From an uncultured Eubacteriales bacterium (GTDB lineage: Bacteria > Bacillota > Clostridia > Oscillospirales > Acutalibacteraceae), in contig OMYH01000024.1 of the NCBI GenBank assembly GCA_900315255.1, positions 740-64,739 of the forward strand: a stretch of DNA of 64,000 nucleotides, given 5' to 3'. The position numbers and the translations under genes were made by a program. The notes below the pieces were generated by a model. The model worked only from the letters and a program-made list of their open reading frames with translations, was not told where the DNA came from and did not search any database. Each line of letters opens with the position of its first letter. Within the stretch, counting starts at the first letter, position 1. Below are positions 429-59,900 of the stretch, in pieces.

Positions 429-1571
429 ATGAAACTCATTCACCTATCCGATCTCCATATCGGCAAGAAGGTCAACGGCTGCTCTATGCTCGATGATCAG
501 AAATTCATTCTGCTGCAGATTCTCAATATTATTGATGAGGTGAAACCTGACGGGGTCATTATTGCAGGCGACATCTACGACAAAGGTATTCCGCCCTCGG
601 AGGCAGTTGCACTGTTTGACGACTTTCTCTGCAAGTTGGCACAGCGGAATAAACCGGTATTCATTATCAGCGGCAATCACGATTCGGCAGAGAGATTATC
701 GTTCGGTTCACGGATCATGAGCAAAAACAATATACACATCTCCCCCGTTTTTAAAGGCAAGGTTTCTTCTATTACATACAGTGACGAGTTTGGAGCTGTG
801 AATTTCTATCTGCTGCCGTTCATCAAACCCACAGACGTTCGGAGAAGATTTGTAGACATGAAGCTTGACAGCAGTCTTTCATATTCCGATGCGGTGAAGA
901 TCGCCGTAGATAATATGGAAATCGATCCGTCGCAGAGGAATGTCATTATTTCTCATCAGTTTGTCATTGGCGCAGAAAAATCGGATTCCGAAGAGCCATG
1001 TTCTGTCGGTGGCAGCGATGAGGTATCATCCGATGTATACGACATATTTGATTACGCTGCTCTCGGACATATTCACGGTCCGCAAAGTATCGGCAAAGAG
1101 AATATCCGATACTGTGGCACTCCGCTCAAATATTCTTTCTCCGAGGAGTATCACAAAAAATCTGTTACGGTAGTCGAGCTGAAGGAAAAGGGTAATGTCA
1201 CTATCGAAACCATTGACCTGAATCCCAAGCGTGATATGCGTACTATCGAAGGCAATTTCAAGGACTTATACGACGTTAAAAACCAGACCGATGATTACGT
1301 CCAGATAAACCTCACCGACGACGAACCCACACCAAACGCATTGAGAAGATTAAGGGAGATATACCCGAACATCATGAAGCTCAAAAACGGCAAGCACGCA
1401 GGAGAGTACTCACTCACGGCGATCGAGGAGGATAAGCAGGTGCAGGATTCCCCGCTTGAGATAGTCATAGAGTTTCTCAACGACAGAGGAGTTGCTCTGA
1501 CCGATGAAAGAATAGAATACTTAGACAGGATCATCAACGATATATGGGAGGGTAAATATGAGACCGATTAA
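429..1571 (+). CDS. sbcD: SbcD/Mre11-family DNA repair exonuclease subunit
   Basis: N-terminal calcineurin-like phosphoesterase motifs are present (HLSDLHIG, GDIYD, GNHD, GHIH). A GGAGG RBS lies 7 nt upstream. The gene overlaps the downstream sbcC by 14 nt. Confidence 0.9.
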   Translation: MKLIHLSDLHIGKKVNGCSMLDDQKFILLQILNIIDEVKPDGVIIAGDIYDKGIPPSEAVALFDDFLCKLAQRNKPVFIISGNHDSAERLSFGSRIMSKNNIHISPVFKGKVSSITYSDEFGAVNFYLLPFIKPTDVRRRFVDMKLDSSLSYSDAVKIAVDNMEIDPSQRNVIISHQFVIGAEKSDSEEPCSVGGSDEVSSDVYDIFDYAALGHIHGPQSIGKENIRYCGTPLKYSFSEEYHKKSVTVVELKEKGNVTIETIDLNPKRDMRTIEGNFKDLYDVKNQTDDYVQINLTDDEPTPNALRRLREIYPNIMKLKNGKHAGEYSLTAIEEDKQVQDSPLEIVIEFLNDRGVALTDERIEYLDRIINDIWEGKYETD

Positions 1572-4500
1572 ACTTACAATGACCGCATTCGGCCCCTATA
1601 GCGGCACAGTAACGGTAAATATGGACGAACTCGGCACACATGGGCTGTACCTCATCACAGGCGATACGGGCGCAGGAAAGACGACTATATTCGATGCGAT
1701 AACTTACGCTCTCTACGGCGAAACGAGCGGTTCCAAGGATAATAAAAGCAGAACTGCAAAAATGATGCGTTCAAAGTACGCCGGCAAGTCCGTTGAAACG
1801 AGTGTTGAGCTTACATTTGAATATCGTGGGAAGATCTATAAAATAACCAGAAAACCCGACCAGGAGGTTCAAAGCAAAAGGGATCCCGACAAACTTGTTA
1901 CACGCACTTCTAAGGTAGAGTTGATTCTGCCAGATCCCGGTGCGCTGCCCATGACCAAAGACAAAGATGTCACAAAAGCTATAACCGATATTATCGGCTT
2001 GGATAAGAACCAGTTCTGCCAGATCGCCATGATCGCACAGGGCGAATTCATGAAGCTGATCAAAGCCGACACCACAGAACGACAGAAGATATACAGACAC
2101 ATCTTCAAGACAGAACTGTATGATGAGCTTGCAACCCGCGTTAAAGACGACAGGAGCGAGGCAAAAAAAGTCAGGGACGATCAGGAAAATATAATCAAGA
2201 ATATGCTTTCCGAGATACAAGCTCCCTCTGATTACGGTCGGATCGATGTGATCAACAAAATAAAAGAGGACAATTTTTCCGAGAATAATAAGCTCGACTC
2301 TTTAGACGAGCTTATCGAATACGACCGCAGGCTTCGTGAAGATTCGGAGAAACAGGAAAAAGAACTGGAAAACCAAAAGGAAGTACAGAGCAAAAAGATA
2401 GACAAAGTCAAGGCAGCTCATGAAACAAAGCAGCAGCTTGACGACAATAACAAGCTGTTATCCGATAAGCAGGTTACTCTGAACGAAAAAACAGAAGAGC
2501 TTGACAAAGAGCAGCAGCAAAACGAGTATTTCAAAAAGCTTCGCAACGATACCACCCTGCTCGAAAACAGCCTTGCCGACTATGACAGCATGGAAAGCTA
2601 TGCTAAAGAGAGCAGCATACTTACAGCTAATATAGAGAATGAGAACAACAGGCTTTCCCTGCTTGATCAGACCAAGACATCTAAAGAAGAAACTCTCGGA
2701 ATCAAGAAAACCGAACTTCAAAGCGAAACACTGCAAGGTCTTGACGTTAAGCTTGAAAGTCTGAACAACGAATCAAATAAGCTTTACGATGAAGATAAAA
2801 AGCTCAATGAGCTTGCACAGGGCTATAACGAGATCACAGGAGAGGAAAAGACTCTTGCCAGACTCAAAGACAGCTTTATCACCGCACTCGATGACTGTGT
2901 TGCTGCAAAAGCGAAATATGCGGGCGAACTCGCAGGCTTTGCAGACTATCAGAAGGAAATGCTCACGCTGATGCAGCAGCAGACCGCCGATAAAGAGAAC
3001 AGGGTAAAGAACAAGGAAGCACGGCTCGACTCTTTAAGCAACGCAGGCGAAAGACTTATCAAAGCAGAAAACCAAATAGCCGAGGTAAAAGCCCATATCG
3101 AGAAAATCGGCCGCCTCTCTTTAGACAAGAAATACCTCGATTCTCTCTATAAAGACATCAAAGCATCGGAGTTCTATCTTCAGGAAAGTCTTCAGACAGC
3201 TAAGAACGCAAACAGAGCCTATGCCGATGCTTATGAGCTTTTCCTTAATAATCAGGCAGGTCAGCTTGCAAAGGAGTTAAAAGACAACACTCCATGCCCC
3301 GTGTGCGGTTCGCTGTCACACCCGAGGATTGCTCTGCTCCCCGATCATGCGCCAGACAAGAACAAGGTAGATAAGCTAAAAGCAACAGCAGACAAGGCTG
3401 AATCAGAGCGTGAGCAGCGTGAAAAACAGAGAGATACTCTCCAAGCGACATACAACGAAAAACTCAGCGCTCTGAATGACGCCGCAAAGGAATTGTTCGG
3501 AGAAGAATACAGTTTTGAGAAATTCGATAGCTATGTATCTGCTAAGACAGAACAGCTTGATCGTAATATGCAGGCTTGCAGCATGGAATTAGACAACGCC
3601 AGAGCAGATAACGATCTCAGGAAAAAGCTTGCCGAAGAGATCAAATCGGATAAGGATAAAATAGAAGCGGAAAAGAACGAGAACAGCAAGCTCCGTGAAG
3701 CTATCGCAAAGTATGAAGAGCAGTCAAAAAACACTCGCTCGGAATTCGATGAATTCATACACGAAACAGCTCCTCGTGATTTAGCCAAACTCAATATCAC
3801 GCACAATATTGACGACAGCTTCACTATTATCCGCACAACGAAGCTGCCATCTTCACAGAAAGCCGAAAATAGCTTGCGCAGCTATACTTCTTCGTTTAAC
3901 GATACCGAAGATAAGATCAGAGCCATAGAACAACTCAAGCATACCTTTGTTGAAAAGGGCAGCGATCAGCTCGGTAACGACTTCACTCTTGAAAATGCTC
4001 CCCTGAAAATAAGCGACAATCTTAAGGGTATGCAGGATCGTATTCGTATTGTGAATCAGAACAAGGAAGACGTTACCGGCAAAATAAAAATAAAAGAAGA
4101 CCTTGATCGTTATATCGAGCAGTTAACGAAAGATATCGAAAACTGTAAAAACAGTATTAACGTCATCAACAACAAGCTGACAGAATTCCGCACGAAGAAG
4201 ACTCACTGCGACGAGGAATACAAAAAGCTAAAAGAGAAGCTGAAGTATGAAACAAAAGCAGAGGTTAAACAGACTATTGAGCTCAACTCGGGCTTGATCA
4301 CTCAACACGACAAGAAGCTTAATGACCTGAACAGCGAGGTTCAGACCGTCAGAGACGAGATAAGCACATTAAACGGCACTATTAGACAGCTTGAAGAGAG
4401 CTTTGATGAATCGTACCTTCTTGACATAGAAGAACAGTATCACATCCTGACAGATATTGAACACGCACTTAAAGAATGCAGAGAGTCACTTAACGATGTC

Positions 4501-5157
4501 ACTCTTCGTCTGACAAGCAACCAAAGGATACGCGGTAGCTTAGATAAGGAATATAAGGCTTTTAATGAATACGAAAACAGATTCAAGATGATAGACGCTC
4601 TGTCAAAATATATCCGTGCGAGAACCGCAGACGGCGCAGATATCGGAAAGGTATCTCTGGAAACATTTGTACTGGGTCGATATTTAGACAGAATACTCAA
4701 ATTCGCTAATGAAAGATTATCCGTCATGACAAACGGACAATATGAGCTTAAACGCCGAGAGGAAGCCGAAAACAACCGTTCTCAAACAGGGCTTGATCTT
4801 GACATTCTTGATCACTACAATGAAACACAGAGAAGCATCTCCTCCCTCTCGGGCGGCGAGTCCTTCAAAGCAAGTCTTGCGCTTGCTCTCGGTCTATCCG
4901 ACGAGATACAGCATTCACAGGGCGGCATCACTCTCGACACCATGTTTGTTGACGAGGGCTTCGGTTCACTCGACGACGAGTCCCTTCAAAGCGCACTCCG
5001 AATGCTTATGGAGCTGACGGGTGAATCCGACGATTCACACAAAGGCAGACTTATCGGCATCATCTCTCACGTCAGTGATCTCAAAAATAAAATCGACAAA
5101 CAGATCGTCGTTACAAAAGACAGAGATAACGGAAGCAAGGCAACTATTGTCATCTAA
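1558..5157 (+). CDS. sbcC: SbcC/Rad50-family ATPase with long coiled coil and CxxC zinc hook
   Basis: Walker A GDTGAGKTT is at the N-terminus. A long K/E-rich coiled coil carries a central zinc hook (PCPVCGS). The C-terminus has the signature LSGGESF and Walker B FVDEGFGSLD. Confidence 0.9.
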   Translation: MRPIKLTMTAFGPYSGTVTVNMDELGTHGLYLITGDTGAGKTTIFDAITYALYGETSGSKDNKSRTAKMMRSKYAGKSVETSVELTFEYRGKIYKITRKPDQEVQSKRDPDKLVTRTSKVELILPDPGALPMTKDKDVTKAITDIIGLDKNQFCQIAMIAQGEFMKLIKADTTERQKIYRHIFKTELYDELATRVKDDRSEAKKVRDDQENIIKNMLSEIQAPSDYGRIDVINKIKEDNFSENNKLDSLDELIEYDRRLREDSEKQEKELENQKEVQSKKIDKVKAAHETKQQLDDNNKLLSDKQVTLNEKTEELDKEQQQNEYFKKLRNDTTLLENSLADYDSMESYAKESSILTANIENENNRLSLLDQTKTSKEETLGIKKTELQSETLQGLDVKLESLNNESNKLYDEDKKLNELAQGYNEITGEEKTLARLKDSFITALDDCVAAKAKYAGELAGFADYQKEMLTLMQQQTADKENRVKNKEARLDSLSNAGERLIKAENQIAEVKAHIEKIGRLSLDKKYLDSLYKDIKASEFYLQESLQTAKNANRAYADAYELFLNNQAGQLAKELKDNTPCPVCGSLSHPRIALLPDHAPDKNKVDKLKATADKAESEREQREKQRDTLQATYNEKLSALNDAAKELFGEEYSFEKFDSYVSAKTEQLDRNMQACSMELDNARADNDLRKKLAEEIKSDKDKIEAEKNENSKLREAIAKYEEQSKNTRSEFDEFIHETAPRDLAKLNITHNIDDSFTIIRTTKLPSSQKAENSLRSYTSSFNDTEDKIRAIEQLKHTFVEKGSDQLGNDFTLENAPLKISDNLKGMQDRIRIVNQNKEDVTGKIKIKEDLDRYIEQLTKDIENCKNSINVINNKLTEFRTKKTHCDEEYKKLKEKLKYETKAEVKQTIELNSGLITQHDKKLNDLNSEVQTVRDEISTLNGTIRQLEESFDESYLLDIEEQYHILTDIEHALKECRESLNDVTLRLTSNQRIRGSLDKEYKAFNEYENRFKMIDALSKYIRARTADGADIGKVSLETFVLGRYLDRILKFANERLSVMTNGQYELKRREEAENNRSQTGLDLDILDHYNETQRSISSLSGGESFKASLALALGLSDEIQHSQGGITLDTMFVDEGFGSLDDESLQSALRMLMELTGESDDSHKGRLIGIISHVSDLKNKIDKQIVVTKDRDNGSKATIVI

Positions 5158-5217: not shown

Positions 5218-5314
5218 TTAAGGAGACACTGATTAAATCGAGTGCCGAAGTTGCGCCGTCAGATTTTTAGGCAAATTGTGCGAAAAATCCGCAGGAATAC
5301 TGACGTATTTCAAG
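5218..5314 (+). mobile_element. MITE-like repeat copy 1: arm A only (97 bp), ending at the central motif GACGTATTTCAAG
   Basis: Nearly identical to the arm A portions of 16281..16377 and 40400..40496. It starts TTAAGGAGACACTGATTAAATC. No arm B or right terminal repeat follows. Confidence 0.85.
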
Positions 5315-6756: not shown

Positions 6757-6853
6757 TTTAGGAGACGCTGATTAAATCGAGTGCCTATATTGCGAAGTCA
6801 GATTTTTAGGCAAATTAGTTGAAAAATTCGCAGGAATACTGACGTATTTCAAG
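6757..6853 (+). mobile_element. MITE-like repeat copy 2: diverged arm A only
   Basis: It aligns over its full length with copy 1 (TTTAGGAGACGCTGATTAAATCGAGTGCCTATATTGCGAAGTCAGATTTTTAGGCAAATTAGTTGAAAAATTCGCAGGAATACTGACGTATTTCAAG) with about a dozen substitutions. It ends at the same central motif. Confidence 0.75.
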
Positions 6854-6884
6854 AATTTTTATCAATACGAAAGAATGTGATATT

Positions 6885-7472
6885 ATGTACGACAACTGGC
6901 ATGATCTGAAAACTGCCTGCTATAAATGCAATAAGTGTGAACTATGCTCGACCAGAACAAACCTTGTTTTCGGAGTCGGCAACCCGAATGCCGAGGTAAT
7001 GTTTATCGGCGAAGGACCGGGCGAACAGGAGGATCTCAAAGGTGAACCGTTCGTAGGTCGGGGCGGACAGCTGCTTGATAAAATGCTTGCAGTAGTCGAT
7101 CTTGATCGTAATAAGAATATTTATATTGCGAATATGGTAAAATGCCGTCCTCCGAAAAACCGCGATCCCAAACCCGAAGAGCAGGATCAATGTATCAACT
7201 GGCTGCGGAATCAGGTGAAGCTCATCCGCCCGAAAATAATCGTATGTTTAGGCAGAATTTCGGCAATGCGTGTGATCAAGCCAGATATAAAAATAACCCG
7301 TGAGCACGGGATATTTTTTGAACGCAAGGGTACTCTGCTCATGGCAACTCTGCACCCTGCGGCACTGCTGCGAAATCCCAACAACAAGCCTGCAGCTATG
7401 GAAGATTTCTTCAAGCTCCGTGACAAGATCAACGAGATCTGCGACCATACCTACGACAAGCAAGGGGGGTAA
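6885..7472 (+). CDS. Family 4 uracil-DNA glycosylase (4Fe-4S type)
   Basis: An N-terminal Cys cluster ([10 protein letters not shown]) is followed by the family-4 motif [11 protein letters not shown] and a conserved C-terminal HPAALLRNP. Confidence 0.85.
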
Positions 7473-8340: not shown

Positions 8341-11300
8341 TTAGAATTGATCTTCTTCACGTTTACGGCAAACTGCAAATACAAAGAGTGCCGTAAGCAT
8401 AGCCACTGCGTAACCAATAGCATTTCTGCTGTCGCCTGTCTTTACAGGATCTGCAGAGCCGCCGCCCGATTGCTGCGGAATAGGATTATTGACAACTGTT
8501 GTGGTTGTGGTCGGTGTTGTGTTCTGCTTGTTGTCAGTCTCCGTCTTAGGCGTATCGGAATCTTTCTTCTCTGCTGTTCCGCCGCCGATTTGTGTCTGCG
8601 ATGTATCGGTCGTCGGAGTATCGCTCGGGGTTTCGCTTGTTGTATCCGTCGTCGGTTCGGGAACAACTGTCGTATCTGTTTCAGGTTCCGGAACTACCGT
8701 CGTATCCGGGTTCGTCTCGGGAACTACCGTCGTATCGGGGTTCGTTTCGGGAACTACCGTTGTATCGGGGTTCGTCTCGGGAACTACCGTCGTATCCGTT
8801 TCACTCTCGGGTACTGTTGTATCCGTAGTCGTGTTGGTATCGGTGGTTATCTCGGGTTCGGAATCCTTCTCTACCGTTCCGCCCTCGATCTTGGTATTGT
8901 CGGAATCGGTTTCTGATACCGATTCTGTATCCGTTGTAGTTTCAGGTACTATAACATCGGTTGTTGTATCGGGTTCGGAATCCTTCTCGACCTCCGGTTC
9001 GATATCCGTGGTCGTATCGGGTTCAACATTCTCCGAAACAGGCTCAGAATCCTCTGAAACAGGCTCGGGATCGGGGATAATAACTATTACATCTACACTG
9101 TCATCGTCCTTTACGCCTTCCTTAGCCTCTGCGGTAACAGTGCTTGTTATTGTCGGATCCTCTGTGGAATAATCAACATCGGATACCTTTACCTCGTACT
9201 TAACAACTACAGTCTGACCCTTCTCTATTCTGTCGATAGTGAGCGTGTCGCCGTCAGCCGTGTACTTGGGATCGTAGCTGATAAACTTACCGGGGAGATC
9301 CTCTTTTACAATGACCTCTGTAAGAGCTGTGTCACCTGTGTTTGTGATAATATCCGTGTAAATGATCGTTCCGTCGGGTGTATATTCATACTCCGTAACA
9401 GTCTTAACGACCTTGATAGCTGCCGCATTTACGGGAACATCCTTCGTATCGTTATCGCTCACACCTTCAGCTGCAGCTGCCTTAACAGTTGTCGTGTGTA
9501 TAAAATCGGAAATATTCTCATTTGTAACTACTGTCGAGAATGTGAATGTATAGCTTTCTCCAACATCAAGCTTCGGAATAGTGAACGAGCTGCCGTCTGT
9601 TTCATACTCAACATCAAATGTTCCGTCAATGCTCTCTGTTACAACTACATTTGTAAGAGGAACATCTCCCTTGTTTGTGATAGTATCGGTCCAGACTACT
9701 GTTTCGCCGATCTTGTATGTTCTGCCGTCAACTGTCTTTGTAACCTCGATCTCGGGATCGATGATCAATGCAAAGTTTGTGTCTGTTGCAGATACCTTGT
9801 CGCTCGATTCGGCAATACTGTCTTCGCTTGCAGTTGCTGTAACTACACTCGTGACCCTGCCGTCAGCAACATTCTCATCATTTGCGGGTACTACATAATA
9901 GTAAGTGTAGCTCTCGCCGGGCGCAAGCTCTGCTATCATGATATGGTCGTTCATGATAACTGCACCGTTTGTCAGTGTGAATGTACCGTCCAGATCTTCG
10001 GTAACCTTTATGTTAGTAAGCTTTGTATTACCGTCATTGGTAACAATATTTGTGAATACAACATTGTCGCCCTTGCGGTAGTTCTGATTATCCACAAGCT
10101 TCGTTACGTTTATCGAATAGTGCACAACTTCAACGAGTGTGCTGTCATCGTCGCTTACACCTTCGTCCGCAGTTGCTGTCAAGTTATTGATTACCGTACC
10201 GTCTTCGGCGATCGGTGCATCCTTCGCATTGATAGTATAGAGAAGAGTTACGCTTTCACCCGGTTCGAGCTTATCGATCGTTACAGAACCATTCTTGTTG
10301 AGCGTACCGTCTGCGACGTCTGTATATCCGCCCTTTGTGAAGGCTTCTCGTACTACTACATTTGTAAGCGTTGTATCGCCTGTATTTGTTACGACATCAA
10401 TGAAGACAATATCCTCCAGGTCATTGTAAACCTTCTTCTCATATGTTGTACTTACCTTGATATCATATTCTGCCGGCTTAGGTGTATCCTGCGATTCAAC
10501 TCTATAGACATTTACCGTACAGGTATCGTCGTACGATACGTTCTGTGCCGTTTCAACATCTGCATTGTTAATGATAATATCATCAACCGCAACGCTTGTG
10601 GGAACCTTAAAGTAGAAGGTGTAGCTCTCGCCCGGCTTCAGATCGGGGATCTTCGCTGTTGTACCCATTGCGGTAAGACCGTCCTGCGGAACGTACTGTC
10701 CGATCAGATCCTGGTTTACAACCACATTCGTCAGCTTCGTTTCGCCTGTGTTCTTAACGGTCTCAGTGTATACTACTGTTTCGCTGTCTTTGTACAAAGG
10801 CTTATCGGGTGTCATTGTGATCTCAACTGCGGGAGTAAGCTCGAACTCGATCTCTCTCTCAACACTGTCACCAAGGATATTTGTACAATATACAACTATC
10901 TTGTTCTTTCTTGAAGAGTAATCTACAGCATTCTCCGGAACAACGAATGTAACATCATCGAACTTCTGATCCCTTGCGATCGTTGTTTCGTATGTTACTT
11001 CGTCCTGATCGTTGACAACCTTGATCGTGTAGCTGTTTACATAAACAACGTCGTCCTTCTTTGTTGTCTCTCTCTCGGGAGTATCTGATGTTTCAACAAC
11101 AAATCCCTCGTCAACAGGCTTTGTAAATGTAAGCTTGAAGGTGTTCTTGTCGAATGCCAGATCTTCAACAGGATCGGGTCGCGAAGCAAGCACAACCTCG
11201 CCCCATTTGTATTCGGTGTGGCGGAGAAGGCCTTTTTCGCCGGATAGTATATAAGAACTATTATTTTGACTAACTTCTCTCATGCTATATTGACTGTCAT

Positions 11301-13435: not shown

Positions 13436-13574
13436 TTAAGGAACCACTGATTAAATCACGTCCTTCGGACTGAGCACCAAATTTGCTTGCATCTTTTTGT
13501 CAAATTGCACTCAAAATCCTTGAAATACGTCGACGGTGCAACTTCGGCACTCGATTTAATCAGTGTCTCCTTAA
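13436..13574 (-). mobile_element. MITE-like repeat copy 3 (139 bp): arm B plus the terminal 43 nt of arm A, inserted inside the surface protein gene
   Basis: It starts TTAAGGAACCACTGATTAAATC and ends GATTTAATCAGTGTCTCCTTAA. It differs from copy 5 (18671..18811) by a 2-nt indel and one substitution at the internal junction. Confidence 0.9.
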
Positions 13575-13917
13575 TGTTACCAGTGAAATTCAGACCAATA
13601 ACATCATCGTTATATTCATAAGTTATACTTTGAATATCCTGGATTTTAAGATCGGTCATCTCGTCATTAAAAATCATATTGAAAACTTTAGTGTTTACAT
13701 TAGAATCATAGTGAACATTGCCTTTATAATAGCTACTAACGTTATTGTCGTAAATGCCGCTATAGACTAATGCCGGTACATTCACCACCTTCGGTAAATG
13801 ACTGTCTTCCTCTGCGCTTGCCGACAGTACCAAAACGCTCATCATCATACTCGTCAAAAGCATAACAATAAGCACGAATGCCAGCGACCGCTTACATTCT
13901 CTTCTAATGCTGTCCAT
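13456..13917 (-). CDS. N-terminal fragment of the surface protein (signal peptide plus about 110 aa) ending in a repeat-encoded tail
   Basis: The signal-like N-terminus is KRSLAFVLIVMLLTSMMMSVLVLSASAEE. The last 41 residues (KETLIKSSAEVAPSTYFKDFECNLTKRCKQIWCSVRRT...) are translated from repeat copy 3. Confidence 0.7.
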   Translation of the reverse strand: MDSIRRECKRSLAFVLIVMLLTSMMMSVLVLSASAEEDSHLPKVVNVPALVYSGIYDNNVSSYYKGNVHYDSNVNTKVFNMIFNDEMTDLKIQDIQSITYEYNDDVIGLNFTGNIKETLIKSSAEVAPSTYFKDFECNLTKRCKQIWCSVRRT

Positions 13918-16280: not shown

Positions 16281-16395
16281 TTAAGGAGACACTGATTAAA
16301 TCGAGTGCCGAAGTTGCGCCGTCAGATTTTTAGGCAAATTGTGCGAAAAATCCGCAGGAATACTGACGTATTTCAAGTAATAAGTGGTTCCTTAA
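16281..16395 (+). mobile_element. MITE-like repeat copy 4 (115 bp): full arm A, a TAATAA joint, and only the terminal 12 nt of arm B
   Basis: TTAAGGAGACACTG...GACGTATTTCAAG TAATAA GTGGTTCCTTAA. Arm A is identical or nearly identical to copy 1. Confidence 0.9.
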
Positions 16396-18670: not shown

Positions 18671-18811
18671 TTAAGGAACCACTGATTAAATCACGTCCTT
18701 CGGACTGAGCACCAAATTTGCTTGCATCTTTTTGTCAAATTGCACTCAAAATCCTTGAAATACGTCCTGACGGCGCAACTTCGGCACTCGATTTAATCAG
18801 TGTCTCCTTAA
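18671..18811 (-). mobile_element. MITE-like repeat copy 5 (141 bp): arm B plus the terminal 45 nt of arm A
   Basis: It has the same architecture as copy 3. It sits between the groEL terminator and the 3' end of the HD-domain gene. Confidence 0.9.
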
Positions 18812-19924: not shown

Positions 19925-19979
19925 AAAAACGAACCTCCCGTGCAGATAGTCCGACAGCCGCACAAGAGGTATCCATGTA

Positions 19980-20074
19980 GCAGCGGAATGCAGCTGCGAA
20001 ATCGCAAGCAAAGCTTTTCGTCCTCCGACAACTTCCTGTTCGAAAGGCACTTAACGCTTCACAGCCTACTCTGC
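19980..20074 (-). promoter_or_regulatory. THF (tetrahydrofolate) riboswitch aptamer, class I, in the folE leader
   Basis: The reverse strand reads GCAGAGUAGGCUGUGAAGCGUUAAGUGCCUUUCGAACAGGAAGUUGUCGGAGGACGAAAAGCUUUGCUUGCGAUUUCGCAGCUGCAUUCCGCUGC. It contains the blocks I recall as conserved in THF-I aptamers (AGAGUAG, GCGUUAAGUG, GGA(A/U)GU..GUCG, ACGAA.GC, GCAU.CCGCU closing P1). The genomic context upstream of folE fits. Confidence 0.7.
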
Positions 20075-20287
20075 AATTATTATCTGTTAAAATTATAACA
20101 CACTCCGACAAAATAATCAACGGATTTACGTACAACTATTTCAAGTGTATTCTTTTATTATTGTGTATTGTGTAGAAATAAACTAAGAGTTTCAAATGCA
20201 TTTCCAAGCTGAAAACACAACGCTTGATTGAACCGTCGTCCCAAGCTGCGATCATGCGAGCATGCCAAGCTTAAAATCCTTGTTTAA

Positions 20288-40399: not shown

Positions 40400-40559
40400 T
40401 TAAGGAGACACTGATTAAATTGAGCGCCGAAGTTGCGCCGTCAGGTTTTTAGGCAAATTGTGCGAAAAATCCGCAGGAATACTGACGTATTTCAAGGATT
40501 TTGAGTGCAATTTGACAGTGCGGGTCTCCGGTGGAGACCTCTGCTCAGTGGTTCCTTAA
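40400..40559 (+). mobile_element. MITE-like repeat copy 6 (160 bp): the most complete copy, with both terminal inverted repeats and a variant arm B
   Basis: It comprises arm A (97 nt, 3 substitutions), the centre GATTTTGAGTGCAATTTGACA, a unique GC hairpin segment GTGCGGGTCTCCGGTGGAGACCTCTGCTCA, and the terminus GTGGTTCCTTAA. It sits at the convergent junction between the RND gene and ispE. Confidence 0.9.
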
Positions 40560-56874: not shown

Positions 56875-56969
56875 TTAAGGAACCACTGATTAAATCACGT
56901 CCTTCGGACTGAGCACCAAATTTGCTTGCATCTTTTTGTCAAATTGCACTCAAAATCCTTGAAATACGT
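56875..56969 (-). mobile_element. MITE-like repeat copy 7: arm B only (95 bp), ending at the central motif
   Basis: TTAAGGAACCACTGATTAAATCACGTCCTTCGGACTGAGCACC...CCTTGAAATACGT is identical to arm B of copies 3 and 5. No arm A follows. The kinase/LRR coding sequence abuts the centre. Confidence 0.9.
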
Positions 56970-59900
56970 TTCCGAACCGGTGTAACATACAGCTGTTAAA
57001 TCTGTACATTGATAAAAAGCAGCATATCCGATATCTGTCACACTTTTCGATATTTCCACCAATGTCAGAGAATCACAATACATAAAAGAATAACTGCCAA
57101 TATTCGTAACATTTTTAGAAATAACTACCTTTTCTAAATAAGTGGAACCTCGAAAAGCACTCAGGTCTATTTCTTTCACACTATCCGGAATAATGTAAGT
57201 CTTGTCATTTTTCGACTGAGGATAAAGAATCAATTTACTCATATCTTTGTTAAACAAAACCTCGTCCTTAGACGAATAATACTTGTTTTGACTGTCAACA
57301 TCTATGCTTGTTAATTTGGAACAGCGATTAAAAGCATATCTCCCTATACTAACCACATTACCCGGAATATTGACTGCCGAAAAGCCATCACATTCAGCAA
57401 ATGCACTCGATTCAATGCTCGTCAGTTTTGCAGAGAACGTTATGTCTATCAGATTATCGCAATCAAAAAACGCACAATAACCTATTTCAGTAACACTATC
57501 GGGCATTTTATATGCTGACAACGGGTTTCCGGCTGGATATGCCATTAAAATTGTCTTATCTTTATTGAACAATACACCGTCTTGAGAAGAATAGTACTTG
57601 TTTTTGTTGTCGACATCTATGCTTTTTATGCTTTTGCAATCACAAAACATACCATCGGCAATCTCAGCAATATTCGCCGGAACTGTAAACTTTTCCGCTT
57701 TTTTTCCTGCAGGATATGCTATCAGTTCAGTCATGTTTTTATCATACAATACTCCGTCTTCAGATTTATATGATTTATTATTGCTGTCGACTTTTATTTC
57801 CGATAGATTATCGCATTCCCTAAATACACCCGATCCAATATATGTAACATTCGCAGGGATATTTACGTTAGTTAAACCGTTGCAATAGCAAAAAGCGTTA
57901 GAAAGAATTGTTGTTACACTTTCGGGAATTTCAAGGCTTGATAAGCTTATACATGAATTGAATGAGTCACTGCAAATTGTTCGAACACTGTCGGCTATTT
58001 CTATATCAGATAAGTTTGTAAACCAACTAAACGCACCTGCTCCAATGCTCTTTACTCCATATTCAACAACGACCTTTTTCACATTGTTTTCGTAACTAAC
58101 ATAACCGGAATTTGAACCCAAAGAAGCATCATAATCCCACATATATCCTTTTCCGTAAATGTACAGCGTACCGCTCTCGTAAAATGCCCACTTTACATTA
58201 TCGGATGGTCCCGATTCGCTTTCATTATCATAGTACTCATTACTCTGTCCGCAGTTGCCCTCTGCAATCAGCTTTGTTTTTTCTTTTTCACGCGGCGACG
58301 GCGGTATATCGGTGTCGATCTCATCGTCTTCTTCCGAATAATAGTCTTCCACCCAATATTCGGAGTCGTCCCAATAGCTCTCACTGTCTTCATACATAAA
58401 CCAATATTCATCAGTATATCTGTCTGTCTCGCTTTCTTCTTCGAAACTTTCTTCACCGGCATAGGAATTAGTTCGGGAATTGGATTTTTTGATAATATAA
58501 CTGATATAATCAATATCCGAATCATAAACCTCGTCTTTATATGGTTGTGTATCCGTGATATATATCCCGATACCGACAACCATCGAAACAATAATAACAA
58601 CCGCCGCAAGCCACAATATAACAATTCCTGTTTGTCTTGTCATAAACTTAGTCTTTGCTCGTTCGTTCTTGTTCAACACCTCAATCTCAAACACTCCCGG
58701 CTCACGCTTTGCAGCTTTTGGAGTTATCGTTTCATTATTATCGAACATCTCGTCATCAGGATCGATCTCCACAAAGATGTTATCCGTTGCTCCGGGTATC
58801 CCCGACAGCGTTGTGTATGTCTTAGGTTTAGTTTCCGGTTTGATCGCCGTTTCAGGTATCACGGAAAACGCTGTCTGCAACTTCTGCTTGAATTCTTTAA
58901 CAGGCAAAACTGTCTGTGACTTCGGCTTCGGCAAAGGTTCGCTTTTCTGCTTCGGTTCTTCGACAGGCAAAGCTGTCTGCGACTTCGGCATCTGCAAGGG
59001 TTCGCTTTTCTGCTTCGGTTCTTCGACAGGCAAAGCTGTCTGCGACTTCGGCTTCGGCAGAGTTTCGCTTTTCTGCTTTGGTTCTTCGACAGGCAAAGCT
59101 GTCTGTGACTTTGGCTTTGGCAGAGATTCTCTTTTCTCCTTCGGCTGTTCAACAGGCATAGATATCTGTGATTTAGGCTTTGGTAACGGTTCGCTTTTCT
59201 GCTTCGGTTCTTCAACAGGCAGTGCTATCAGTGATTTAGGCTTTGGTAACGGTTCGCTTTTCTCCTTCGGCTCTTCAACAGGCATAGATATCTGTGACTT
59301 TGGCTTTGGCAGAGATTCACTCTTCTCCTTCTGCTCTTCAACAGGCAGTGCTATCAGTGATTTAGGCTTTGGTAACGGTTCGCTCTTCTCCTTCGGCTGT
59401 TCAACAGACATAGATATCTGTGATTTAGGCTTTGGTAACGGTTCGCTCTTCTCCTTCTGCTCTTCAACAGGCAGTGCTATCTGTGATTTAGGCTTTGGTA
59501 ACGGTTCGCTTTTCTCCTTCTGCTCTTCAACAGGCATAGATATCTGTGACTTAGGCTTCGGGTCTTCATTAGGCAATACCGTCTGAGACCTCGGCTTTGA
59601 CAGTGGTTCGCTCTTATTTTTTTGTTTTTCGATAAATGAAATATATGACCGATGATTGCGTTTTATCTTCTCGACACTCTCGATCCTCTCGTCCTGCAGC
59701 AGTGCCGATTTGAACTCGCCCATCGTCTGAAAACGGTCAGCAGATCTTATACTTAACGCCTTCAGAATTGCGTCTTCTTTAGACTTCGAAATATTAATCC
59801 CCAGCTCATGCGGCGGAACAAGCTCATCATCTTCGATCCTTTCAAACGAATCGGGGGGACGCATTCCCGCTATCGCAAAATAAAACGTAGCTCCCAAACT

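Follow-up and report, generated by a model that had tools for sequence, protein, structure and literature searches.

Seven related repeats in the window

The window, that is the whole 64-kb stretch of DNA analysed here, is an ordinary piece of chromosome with a G+C content of 44%. Among its genes are sbcD-sbcC, a PTAC-domain (phosphate propanoyltransferase) gene, udg, the gene of a 1689-aa CLIPPER-domain protein, a mutS2-like gene, groES-groEL, rimM-trmD, uvrC, gap, an RND-type transporter, the Rnf complex, two tRNAs, a kinase/BspA-LRR gene and the gene of a dockerin protein. A THF (tetrahydrofolate) riboswitch lies on the minus strand at 19979-20075 (80.6 bits, against a gathering threshold of 36), at the 5' end of an ORF that is called GTP cyclohydrolase I in sister strains. 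In-frame tandem repeats were observed in the kinase/BspA-LRR gene (ten 63-nt units, 58756-59622) and in the CLIPPER-domain gene (30-nt units, 8639-8815).

Seven copies of one repeat are placed between these genes or at their 3' ends, in either orientation and in all sorts of gene context. Copy 1 (5218-5314, plus strand, 97 bp) consists of a TTAA (5218-5221) and arm A alone, and the diverged copy 2 (6757-6859, plus strand, about 103 bp) of a TTTA and arm A. Copies 3 (13436-13574, minus strand, 139 bp, with TTAA at both ends), 4 (16281-16395, plus strand, 115 bp) and 5 (18671-18811, minus strand, 141 bp, downstream of the groEL terminator) are two-ended. So is copy 6 (40400-40559, plus strand, 160 bp), the copy that had been flagged, which belongs to a long subtype with a GC hairpin. 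Copy 7 (56875-56969, minus strand, 95 bp) consists of the flanking 4 bp and arm B alone. The two-ended copies fold to long hairpins (z −4.3 to −6.1); the single-arm copies fold no better than shuffled sequences.

The terminal 22-mer TTAAGGA(G/A)(A/C)CACTGATTAAATC, searched on both strands with up to 3 mismatches, gave 9 matches in the window, as against 0.01 expected from shuffled sequence. A profile HMM made from 62 full-length relatives found exactly these seven copies and no further one in the 64 kb, and a repeat finder returned arm A in four copies and arm B in three. It can be seen that the seven repeats of the original prediction are all present and read as described there, with one change of coordinates: the end of copy 2, which had been put at 6853, reaches about 6859. 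The near-identity that had been noted among copies 1/4/6 and among copies 3/5/7 is due to their orientation and to the arm that survives, and does not mark subfamilies.

Termini and target-site duplication

A scan of 185,579 species genomes for TTAAGGARMCACTGATTAAAT gave at least 107 stretches. The element proper reads GGA(A/G)(A/C)CACTGATTAAAT…ATTTAATCAGTG(G/T)(T/C)TCC. In its full form it is a 172-bp fold-back (180 bp with the duplicated target) or a 234-bp variant (242 bp), and as in other MITEs it is short and non-coding, with no ORF of its own. It is bounded by inverted repeats of 17-18 bp, GGA(A/G)(A/C)CACTGATTAAAT; taken over 98 two-ended elements, the terminal inverted repeats, of 17-22 nt, are near-invariant, again as in a MITE.

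It had been claimed that every copy starts with TTAA. The TTAA is real, but it is a 4-bp target-site duplication that lies outside the element, and at copy 2 it is replaced by TTTA. Both flanks are TTAA in 71 of the 98 listed two-ended elements. The exceptions mostly carry paired flanks as well (CAAG/CAAG, CTGT/CTGT, TAAA/TAAA and CTAA/CTAT, to which the TTTA pair of the copy 2 site can be added). Elements whose ends fell outside the TTAA-anchored scan pattern served as an unbiased set; 13 of these 22 bystanders have identical 4-bp flanks, TTAA in 10 of the 13. Of 65 elements for which a single end served as anchor, 51 have TTAA at the other, free end, and neighbouring elements have one TTAA in common (L050, L078, L090, L053). 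The duplication is thus of 4 bp with TTAA dominant, and it is of the YTAR type known from the IS5 group, since TTAA, CTAA, CTAG and TTAG are found beside complete insertion sequences (ISs) and MITEs.

Head-to-tail tandem insertions with one TTAA between them were seen in L050 (7402-7751) and in a Chthoniobacteraceae MAG (L090, 4958-5247), where the interior is G+C-rich and unrelated to the Firmicutes types while the termini are the same. Minimal elements of 35 bp (L026, L036, L067) or about 53 bp (L034, L059, L104) are made of the two termini and the TTAA duplications, with little else. They suggest that the pair of terminal repeats alone may be enough for mobilisation.

Empty sites and full-length elements in sister strains

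The sister contigs come from rumen metagenomes and encode identical GroES, PTAC, GHMP-kinase and RnfC proteins; their flanks are 97-100% identical to those of the window and all seven sites are covered. The original prediction had asked for sites with a single TTAA in sister strains, and two were found. The site of copy 4 is empty in L111, L114 and L116, where the sequence reads …AAAGAGACA-TTAA-TTTTTATC…, and the site of copy 6 is empty in L127, likewise with a single TTAA. Insertion polymorphism together with an intact empty site, as expected of a MITE, is therefore observed for these two copies. The recent activity that had been proposed for the family is shown at these two of the seven sites only.

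Full-length members, which had also been looked for, occur in the sister strains as 180-bp and 242-bp elements. At site 1 a 180-bp element is present in L118, L122 and L123 and a 161-bp one in L121. In comparison with the 180-bp element, copy 1 has suffered a 95-nt deletion that took arm B, the second target duplication with the stop codon of a DUF4097 gene in it, and the 4 last codons of this gene; in the sisters, copy 1 stands at a TTAA whose TAA is that stop codon. At site 2 there is in L109 a two-ended 242-bp element of the long subtype with TTTA on both sides, from which a 136-nt deletion in the window took the remainder of the element and the second TTTA. Site 3 has 180 bp in L108-L111 as against 139 bp in the window (a 41-nt deletion), and 149 bp in L112, where a different 31 nt are missing. 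At site 4, where the window has 115 bp with 65 nt of arm B deleted, 180 bp are present in L108-L110 and 100 bp in L112. Site 5 has 180 bp in L108 and 141 bp in the window, a 39-nt deletion.

At site 6 an 82-nt deletion left 160 bp in the window and a different 84-nt deletion left 158 bp in L126. Here the 242-bp parent is a reconstruction from the window and L126, with an architecture like that of the intact 242-bp element at the copy 2 site of L109. At site 7, where the window has 95 bp, L134 has a near-full two-ended element of 165 bp and a further 87 nt of flank; the deletion in the window took arm A', the second target duplication and these 87 nt, including the native 3' end of the kinase-LRR gene.

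Because full-length elements of 180 or 242 bp stand at sites 1-5 and a near-full one of 165 bp at site 7, the copies of the window are all in-place deletion derivatives. The statements that no copy is full length, that each is a deletion derivative and that the parent was an imperfect palindrome of about 180 bp are thus borne out, the last by the 180-bp elements at sites 1, 3, 4 and 5, and the 41 and 39 nt reported as missing from copies 3 and 5 are exact against these elements. Other details need revision. Copy 4, said to keep 12 nt of arm B, keeps 14 nt and the target duplication (18 nt in total) and has lost 65 nt. The GC hairpin of copy 6 does not replace part of arm B; it is native to the 242-bp subtype, from which copy 6 has lost 82 nt. 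Copies 1, 2 and 7 do retain one arm each, as had been stated, but in copies 1 and 7 this is the result of deletions that run into the flanking genes.

Deletion junctions and assembly

The deletions vary among assemblies, with independent ones at shared sites in L112, L121, L126 and L134. One breakpoint is always at or beside the central loop, directly after …ACGTC, …ACGTCAG or …CAAG. Between strains that are 99-100% identical, such loop-anchored deletions outpace point substitutions.

The window is probably a metagenome-assembled contig, and assembly may therefore favour deleted copies. It has to be considered whether the deletion derivatives are mostly artefacts of short-read or metagenome assembly of a multi-copy 180-bp hairpin and not the dominant genotype of a real cell. 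The two fused ORFs (see below) are on record on one 65,997-bp contig only, as against 15 and 6 contigs with the unfused forms; many sister contigs end within the repeat, whose centre is an N-gap in L120; and each long scaffold has its own set of deletions in spite of flanks that are 99-100% identical. On the other hand, a de Bruijn assembler needs reads that carry the junctions and cannot invent them. The deletions of copies 1 and 7 reach 14 nt and 87 nt into unique flank, and the 65-nt junction of copy 4 (CAAG/TAA…, the slash marking the join) recurs in L112, which is from a different sample. The deletions are moreover asymmetric and loop-anchored, while jumping of a polymerase would give symmetric excisions from the stem. 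We regard a mainly artefactual origin as rather unlikely. Some of the junctions could nevertheless be variants in the minority, or artefacts of the library to which assemblers give preference since a shorter repeat can be resolved. Since assemblers break at full-length copies, contigs that span all seven sites may preferentially carry shortened ones.

The family is a systematic breaker of assemblies: contigs end inside the repeat in L115, L117, L119, L124, L125 and L128-L133, and L120 is an N-gap scaffold. Rumen and gut Firmicutes carry the repeat at high density, and their metagenome assemblies break at it.

Repeat-encoded ends of genes

Three ORFs of the window end in tails encoded by the repeat. 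At copies 1 and 7 the deletion itself crosses into the adjacent gene, which it fuses to such a tail. The C-terminal tail and stop codon of the DUF4097 ORF are at 5233-5311 on the minus strand, and the product has 267 aa here as against 245 aa in the sisters. The Ser/Thr-kinase/BspA-LRR ORF gets a 24-aa tail (TYFKDFECNLTKRCKQIWCSVRRT) and its stop codon from 56895-56969, also on the minus strand, with a product of 1224 aa as against 1228 aa in L134. The third ORF (13456-13917, minus strand) has its tail at 13456-13574; its product has 131 aa in the sisters, where the ORF already terminates within the element, and 153 aa in the window. Its 24-aa tail TYFKDFECNLTKRCKQIWCSVRRT is identical to that of the kinase-LRR ORF.

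The repeat thus creates strain-specific 3' ends of genes as well as false or altered ORF calls. With the family annotated, assemblies, gene calls and the typing of strains would improve in Ruminococcus, Oscillospiraceae, Dialister and their relatives. A further case concerns a 5' end: the called udg ORF of the sisters has 245 aa and starts inside the full-length copy 2 (100-837 in L109), and that of the window has 195 aa (6885-7472). The copy 2 element may provide an upstream start codon for udg, or it may mislead gene callers.

IS5-family elements with the same termini

No transposase or recombinase gene had been noticed in the window. In agreement with this, tblastn with the partner transposase described below found no IS5-type transposase there, and neither a scan of about 30 ORFs of the window nor the annotations of the sister contigs showed a transposase or recombinase domain. 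A TTAA- or TA-targeting IS, for example of the IS5 group, had been suggested as a possible source of the termini, and complete IS5-family elements do have the same ones. In a scan of viral contigs, a complete element of 1213 bp was found at 133-1345 of IMGVR_UViG_3300039322_000108 (L224), with TTAA on both sides. Its left inverted repeat, GGAAACACTGATTAAATC, agrees at 18 of 18 positions with the consensus MITE terminus of the relatives (GGAAACACTGATTAAATC), from which the window copies differ at 1 position; its right inverted repeat is GGAAACGCTGAACAAAAG. Its 331-aa ORF scores 301.2 bits on the NCBIfam model NF033581, 'IS5 family transposase', whose cut-off is 140, and shares 62% identity with the protein of L007 and 46% with E. 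coli InsH. L007 (Pyramidobacter) has, 77 nt after the terminus, a 330-aa ORF with DUF772 and DDE_Tnp_1 domains (302.7 bits on NF033581).

The same arrangement is present in L069 (Chromatium) and L053 (Thiotrichaceae), and L007, L053 and L069 are the only ones of 107 listed genome loci with an IS5-type transposase. Both domains and a score above the NF033581 cut-off are features of the partner elements (L007 and L224), and nothing of this kind was found in the window. A metagenome scan with the L007 protein gave 80 relatives, among them at least 25 complete elements of 1.15-1.26 kb, which end in GGAAAC(A/G)CTGAT(T/A)(T/A)AAT and are flanked by TTAA, CTAG, CTAA or CAAA. The repeats accordingly have their termini in common with autonomous, transposase-encoding elements (L224, L007 and at least 25 complete ISs), as MITEs do. 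When a direct parent was sought by means of the subterminal sequence, the match was limited to the 15-27 terminal nt and the MITE interior matched no sampled IS; as the interior is not derived from any of these, none of them can be named as the direct parent.

The same left end as that of the L224 element is present in a Ruminococcus MAG (L077) and in a further three viral contigs. L224, L223, L225 and L226 are predicted viral contigs, and the element in L224 appears to interrupt an ORF. Carriage of the IS in viral contigs is a possible route of spread between hosts.

Spread and architecture of the family

Among the matches listed from the genome scan are Clostridia (Ruminococcus, Oscillospiraceae, Acutalibacteraceae, Lachnospiraceae and others), Negativicutes (Dialister, including an isolate genome, Veillonellaceae, Selenomonadales and Acidaminococcaceae) and also Desulfovibrionaceae, Gallionella, Methylotenera, Chthoniobacteraceae, Thiotrichaceae, Chromatium and Pyramidobacter. 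One IS5-group terminus is thus conserved across phyla. In these listed matches the ends are near-invariant and the interiors lineage-specific; the sizes, without the flanking 4 bp, cluster at 157-161 and 171-172 bp, and there are mini-forms of 27-46 bp with hardly anything besides the two termini. Plasmid records gave no match to the element. The sole match among phage records is a remnant of a Ruminococcaceae-type interior in an uncultured human-gut phage (MT835572.1, 25004-25108; L222), which has no termini and is 81% identical over 104 nt.

Full-length elements of all lineages can be aligned over their whole length; the left end is distinct from the right, a hairpin stands at the centre, and the elements fold back in every lineage (z −5 to −14). 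In the central hairpin, 5 of 5 pairs have double-sided changes across the lineages (for example CG in 20 and GC in 16 sequences, or AU in 21 and CG in 12), and broken pairs are rare. RNAalifold on the cross-lineage alignment missed the long pairing between the arms, owing to asymmetric indels, and folding was therefore done sequence by sequence. After removal of the termini, the profile of the Clostridia interior matches the interior of the Veillonellaceae type (E about 2e-5, search space 1 Mb), which in turn matches the Selenomonadales type (E 1e-8 to 1e-10). With the Dialister-type interior nhmmer gave no significant match to the others, and its link to them is in termini, size and architecture only. 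An AAAAAT block (ATTTT in the other arm) stands about 45 nt from each end (alignment columns about 130-135); it is kept in nearly all lineages, even where the neighbouring sequence diverges.

Identity of the repeats

Very probably, the repeats are non-autonomous DNA transposons (MITEs) of the IS5 group. The mobile, MITE-like nature that had been proposed for them agrees with the inverted repeats, the 4-bp duplications, the empty sites, the full-length parents and the IS5-family termini. A different TA- or TTAA-targeting system, such as that of IS630/Tc1-mariner-type MITEs (RUP), Correia-like or piggyBac-like elements, might seem attractive, because most copies are flanked by TTAA, the canonical piggyBac target, which also contains the TA used by IS630 and Correia. 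However, the duplication is of 4 bp and some of the targets (CAAG, CTGT) contain no TA, all autonomous elements found with these ends encode an IS5-family transposase with DUF772 and DDE_Tnp_1, and no transposase of a different type was found beside the termini; such a system can be given hardly any credence. The 2-bp TA duplication of an IS630/Tc1-mariner or Correia-type MITE is not what is seen, and neither is the strict TTAA of a piggyBac-like element, given the non-TTAA duplications and the IS5-family transposases associated with the ends. REP/BIME sequences, which depend on RAYT, were rejected on account of the target-site duplication and because no Y1 (RAYT) gene was found in the window or next to the termini. 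For the inverted copies that flank genes, integron attC-like sites and invertible segments were considered, and were dropped in view of the duplications, the empty sites and the IS partners.

The repeats might instead act mainly as a structured RNA (an sRNA or a cis-regulatory hairpin) or as a DNA structure selected by the host, with mobility incidental. Such a role would fit the compensatory changes in all five pairs of the central hairpin, the interior homology and constant asymmetric architecture from Clostridia to Veillonellaceae- and Selenomonadales-type elements, and the conservation of the AAAAAT block about 45 nt from the end. Covariation in a palindrome could, however, also come from hairpin-templated repair. 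No Rfam family reached its gathering threshold (the best hit below it was MIR2933, a plant miRNA hairpin, with 28.8 bits against 70), the copies occur in both orientations and every gene context, single arms give folds like those of shuffles, and a scan of a full-length copy for promoters and terminators gave nothing beyond chance. The free decay by deletion in closely related strains also argues against strong selection at the level of the host, and we consider this reading improbable. A related and more tentative idea, on the whole doubtful, is that the interior, with its covarying central hairpin, conserved A-tract blocks and distinct left and right ends, is a functional module (a transposition enhancer, a site for a host factor or an RNA hairpin) kept across Clostridia and Negativicutes, in which case the family would be a 'designed' MITE of old age that spreads horizontally, as opposed to a degraded IS. 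If so, the loop-anchored deletions would show, in a natural setting, how gut anaerobes process palindromes (for example through SbcCD).

Comparison with known elements

Going by Rfam and the literature searched, the family of IS5-group MITEs is undescribed. The terminus string was found in full-text literature only in unrelated human primers; no description of the family was found in the literature on MITEs in Ruminococcus, Dialister or rumen bacteria, and the text of the NAR 2024 cMITE survey names no such family. The original prediction, which had not recognised the sequence as BOX, RUP, Correia, ERIC or REP, overrated the strangeness of the repeats: they are of a standard, ordinary kind, widespread in gut and rumen bacteria, and the family reveals no new mechanism.

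The closest described analogue is MITEPsy1 of Pseudomonas syringae pv. phaseolicola, with ISPsy2 of the IS5 family (PMC3189936). MITEPsy1 is non-coding, with inverted repeats of about 18 nt that start GGAA…CTGA (termini GGAAGGTCTGA…), duplicates 4 nt (CTAG or YTAA), and has ends that match a ~1.2-kb IS5-family IS, the presumed parent ISPsy2; it can insert at the 3' ends of genes, thereby making new alleles (PMC3189936). Its terminus GGAAGGTCTGAAAAAGCC may be compared with GGAAACACTGATTAAAT in the present family. MITEPsy1 is 100 nt long, has few copies in one species complex, and its transposition was shown experimentally (PMC3189936). The present family, by contrast, folds back over 172 or 234 bp, its central hairpin covaries, it is dense (7 copies in 64 kb), it ranges over Clostridia and Negativicutes and it decays by centre-anchored deletions; its mobility we infer from empty sites only.

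E. coli IS5 (1195 bp, InsH) resembles the partner elements in its GGAA ends, its 4-bp YTAR-type duplication and its length of about 1.2 kb, and the partner transposases, 46% identical to InsH, belong to the IS5 family (about 300 bits on NF033581). The termini diverge after GGAA (GGAAGGTGCGAA vs GGAAACACTGAT), and IS5 itself is autonomous. Other MITEs related to the IS5 family are BrickBuilt, MITE239, MITEPgRS/MITE464 and MITE700 of Porphyromonas gingivalis and the ATR/ISNme1 pair of Neisseria (PMC4596501). As here, these are of type II, with only the inverted repeats in common with the IS5 family and unrelated interiors; they differ in having GAGACC… inverted repeats, variable or absent target duplications and tandem-repeat interiors (PMC4596501).

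None of the small hairpin repeats considered below has the present termini. Correia (Neisseria), RUP (Streptococcus pneumoniae), ERIC and REP sequences are small, abundant and intergenic, and for several of them mobilisation in trans has been proposed. The duplication of Correia and RUP is TA, and REP has no target-site duplication and depends on RAYT. The 4-bp duplications without TA in the present family exclude these mechanisms.

Proposed life cycle

In the mechanism that we propose, a DDE transposase of the IS5 family would recognise the termini of the MITE, acting in trans from a full-length element of ~1.2 kb with the same ends. Insertion at a 4-bp target, usually TTAA, would duplicate this target. 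The inserted long imperfect palindrome would be unstable, and processing of a hairpin or cruciform in the cell would give rise to deletions that each have a breakpoint at the central loop or next to it. These deletions would remove part or all of one arm and sometimes adjoining host DNA, and the outcome would be immobile relics and, in the window, the three ORFs with repeat-encoded tails. The family may thus serve as a clean example of a MITE life cycle, in which insertion into a TTAA site, frequently a stop codon or an intergenic position, is followed by rapid centre-anchored decay.

The sbcD-sbcC genes code for a nuclease of hairpins and palindromes, and SbcDC might take part in the decay of the palindrome. 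In the window sbcD-sbcC (429-5157, plus strand) immediately adjoin copy 1, which may be a coincidence.
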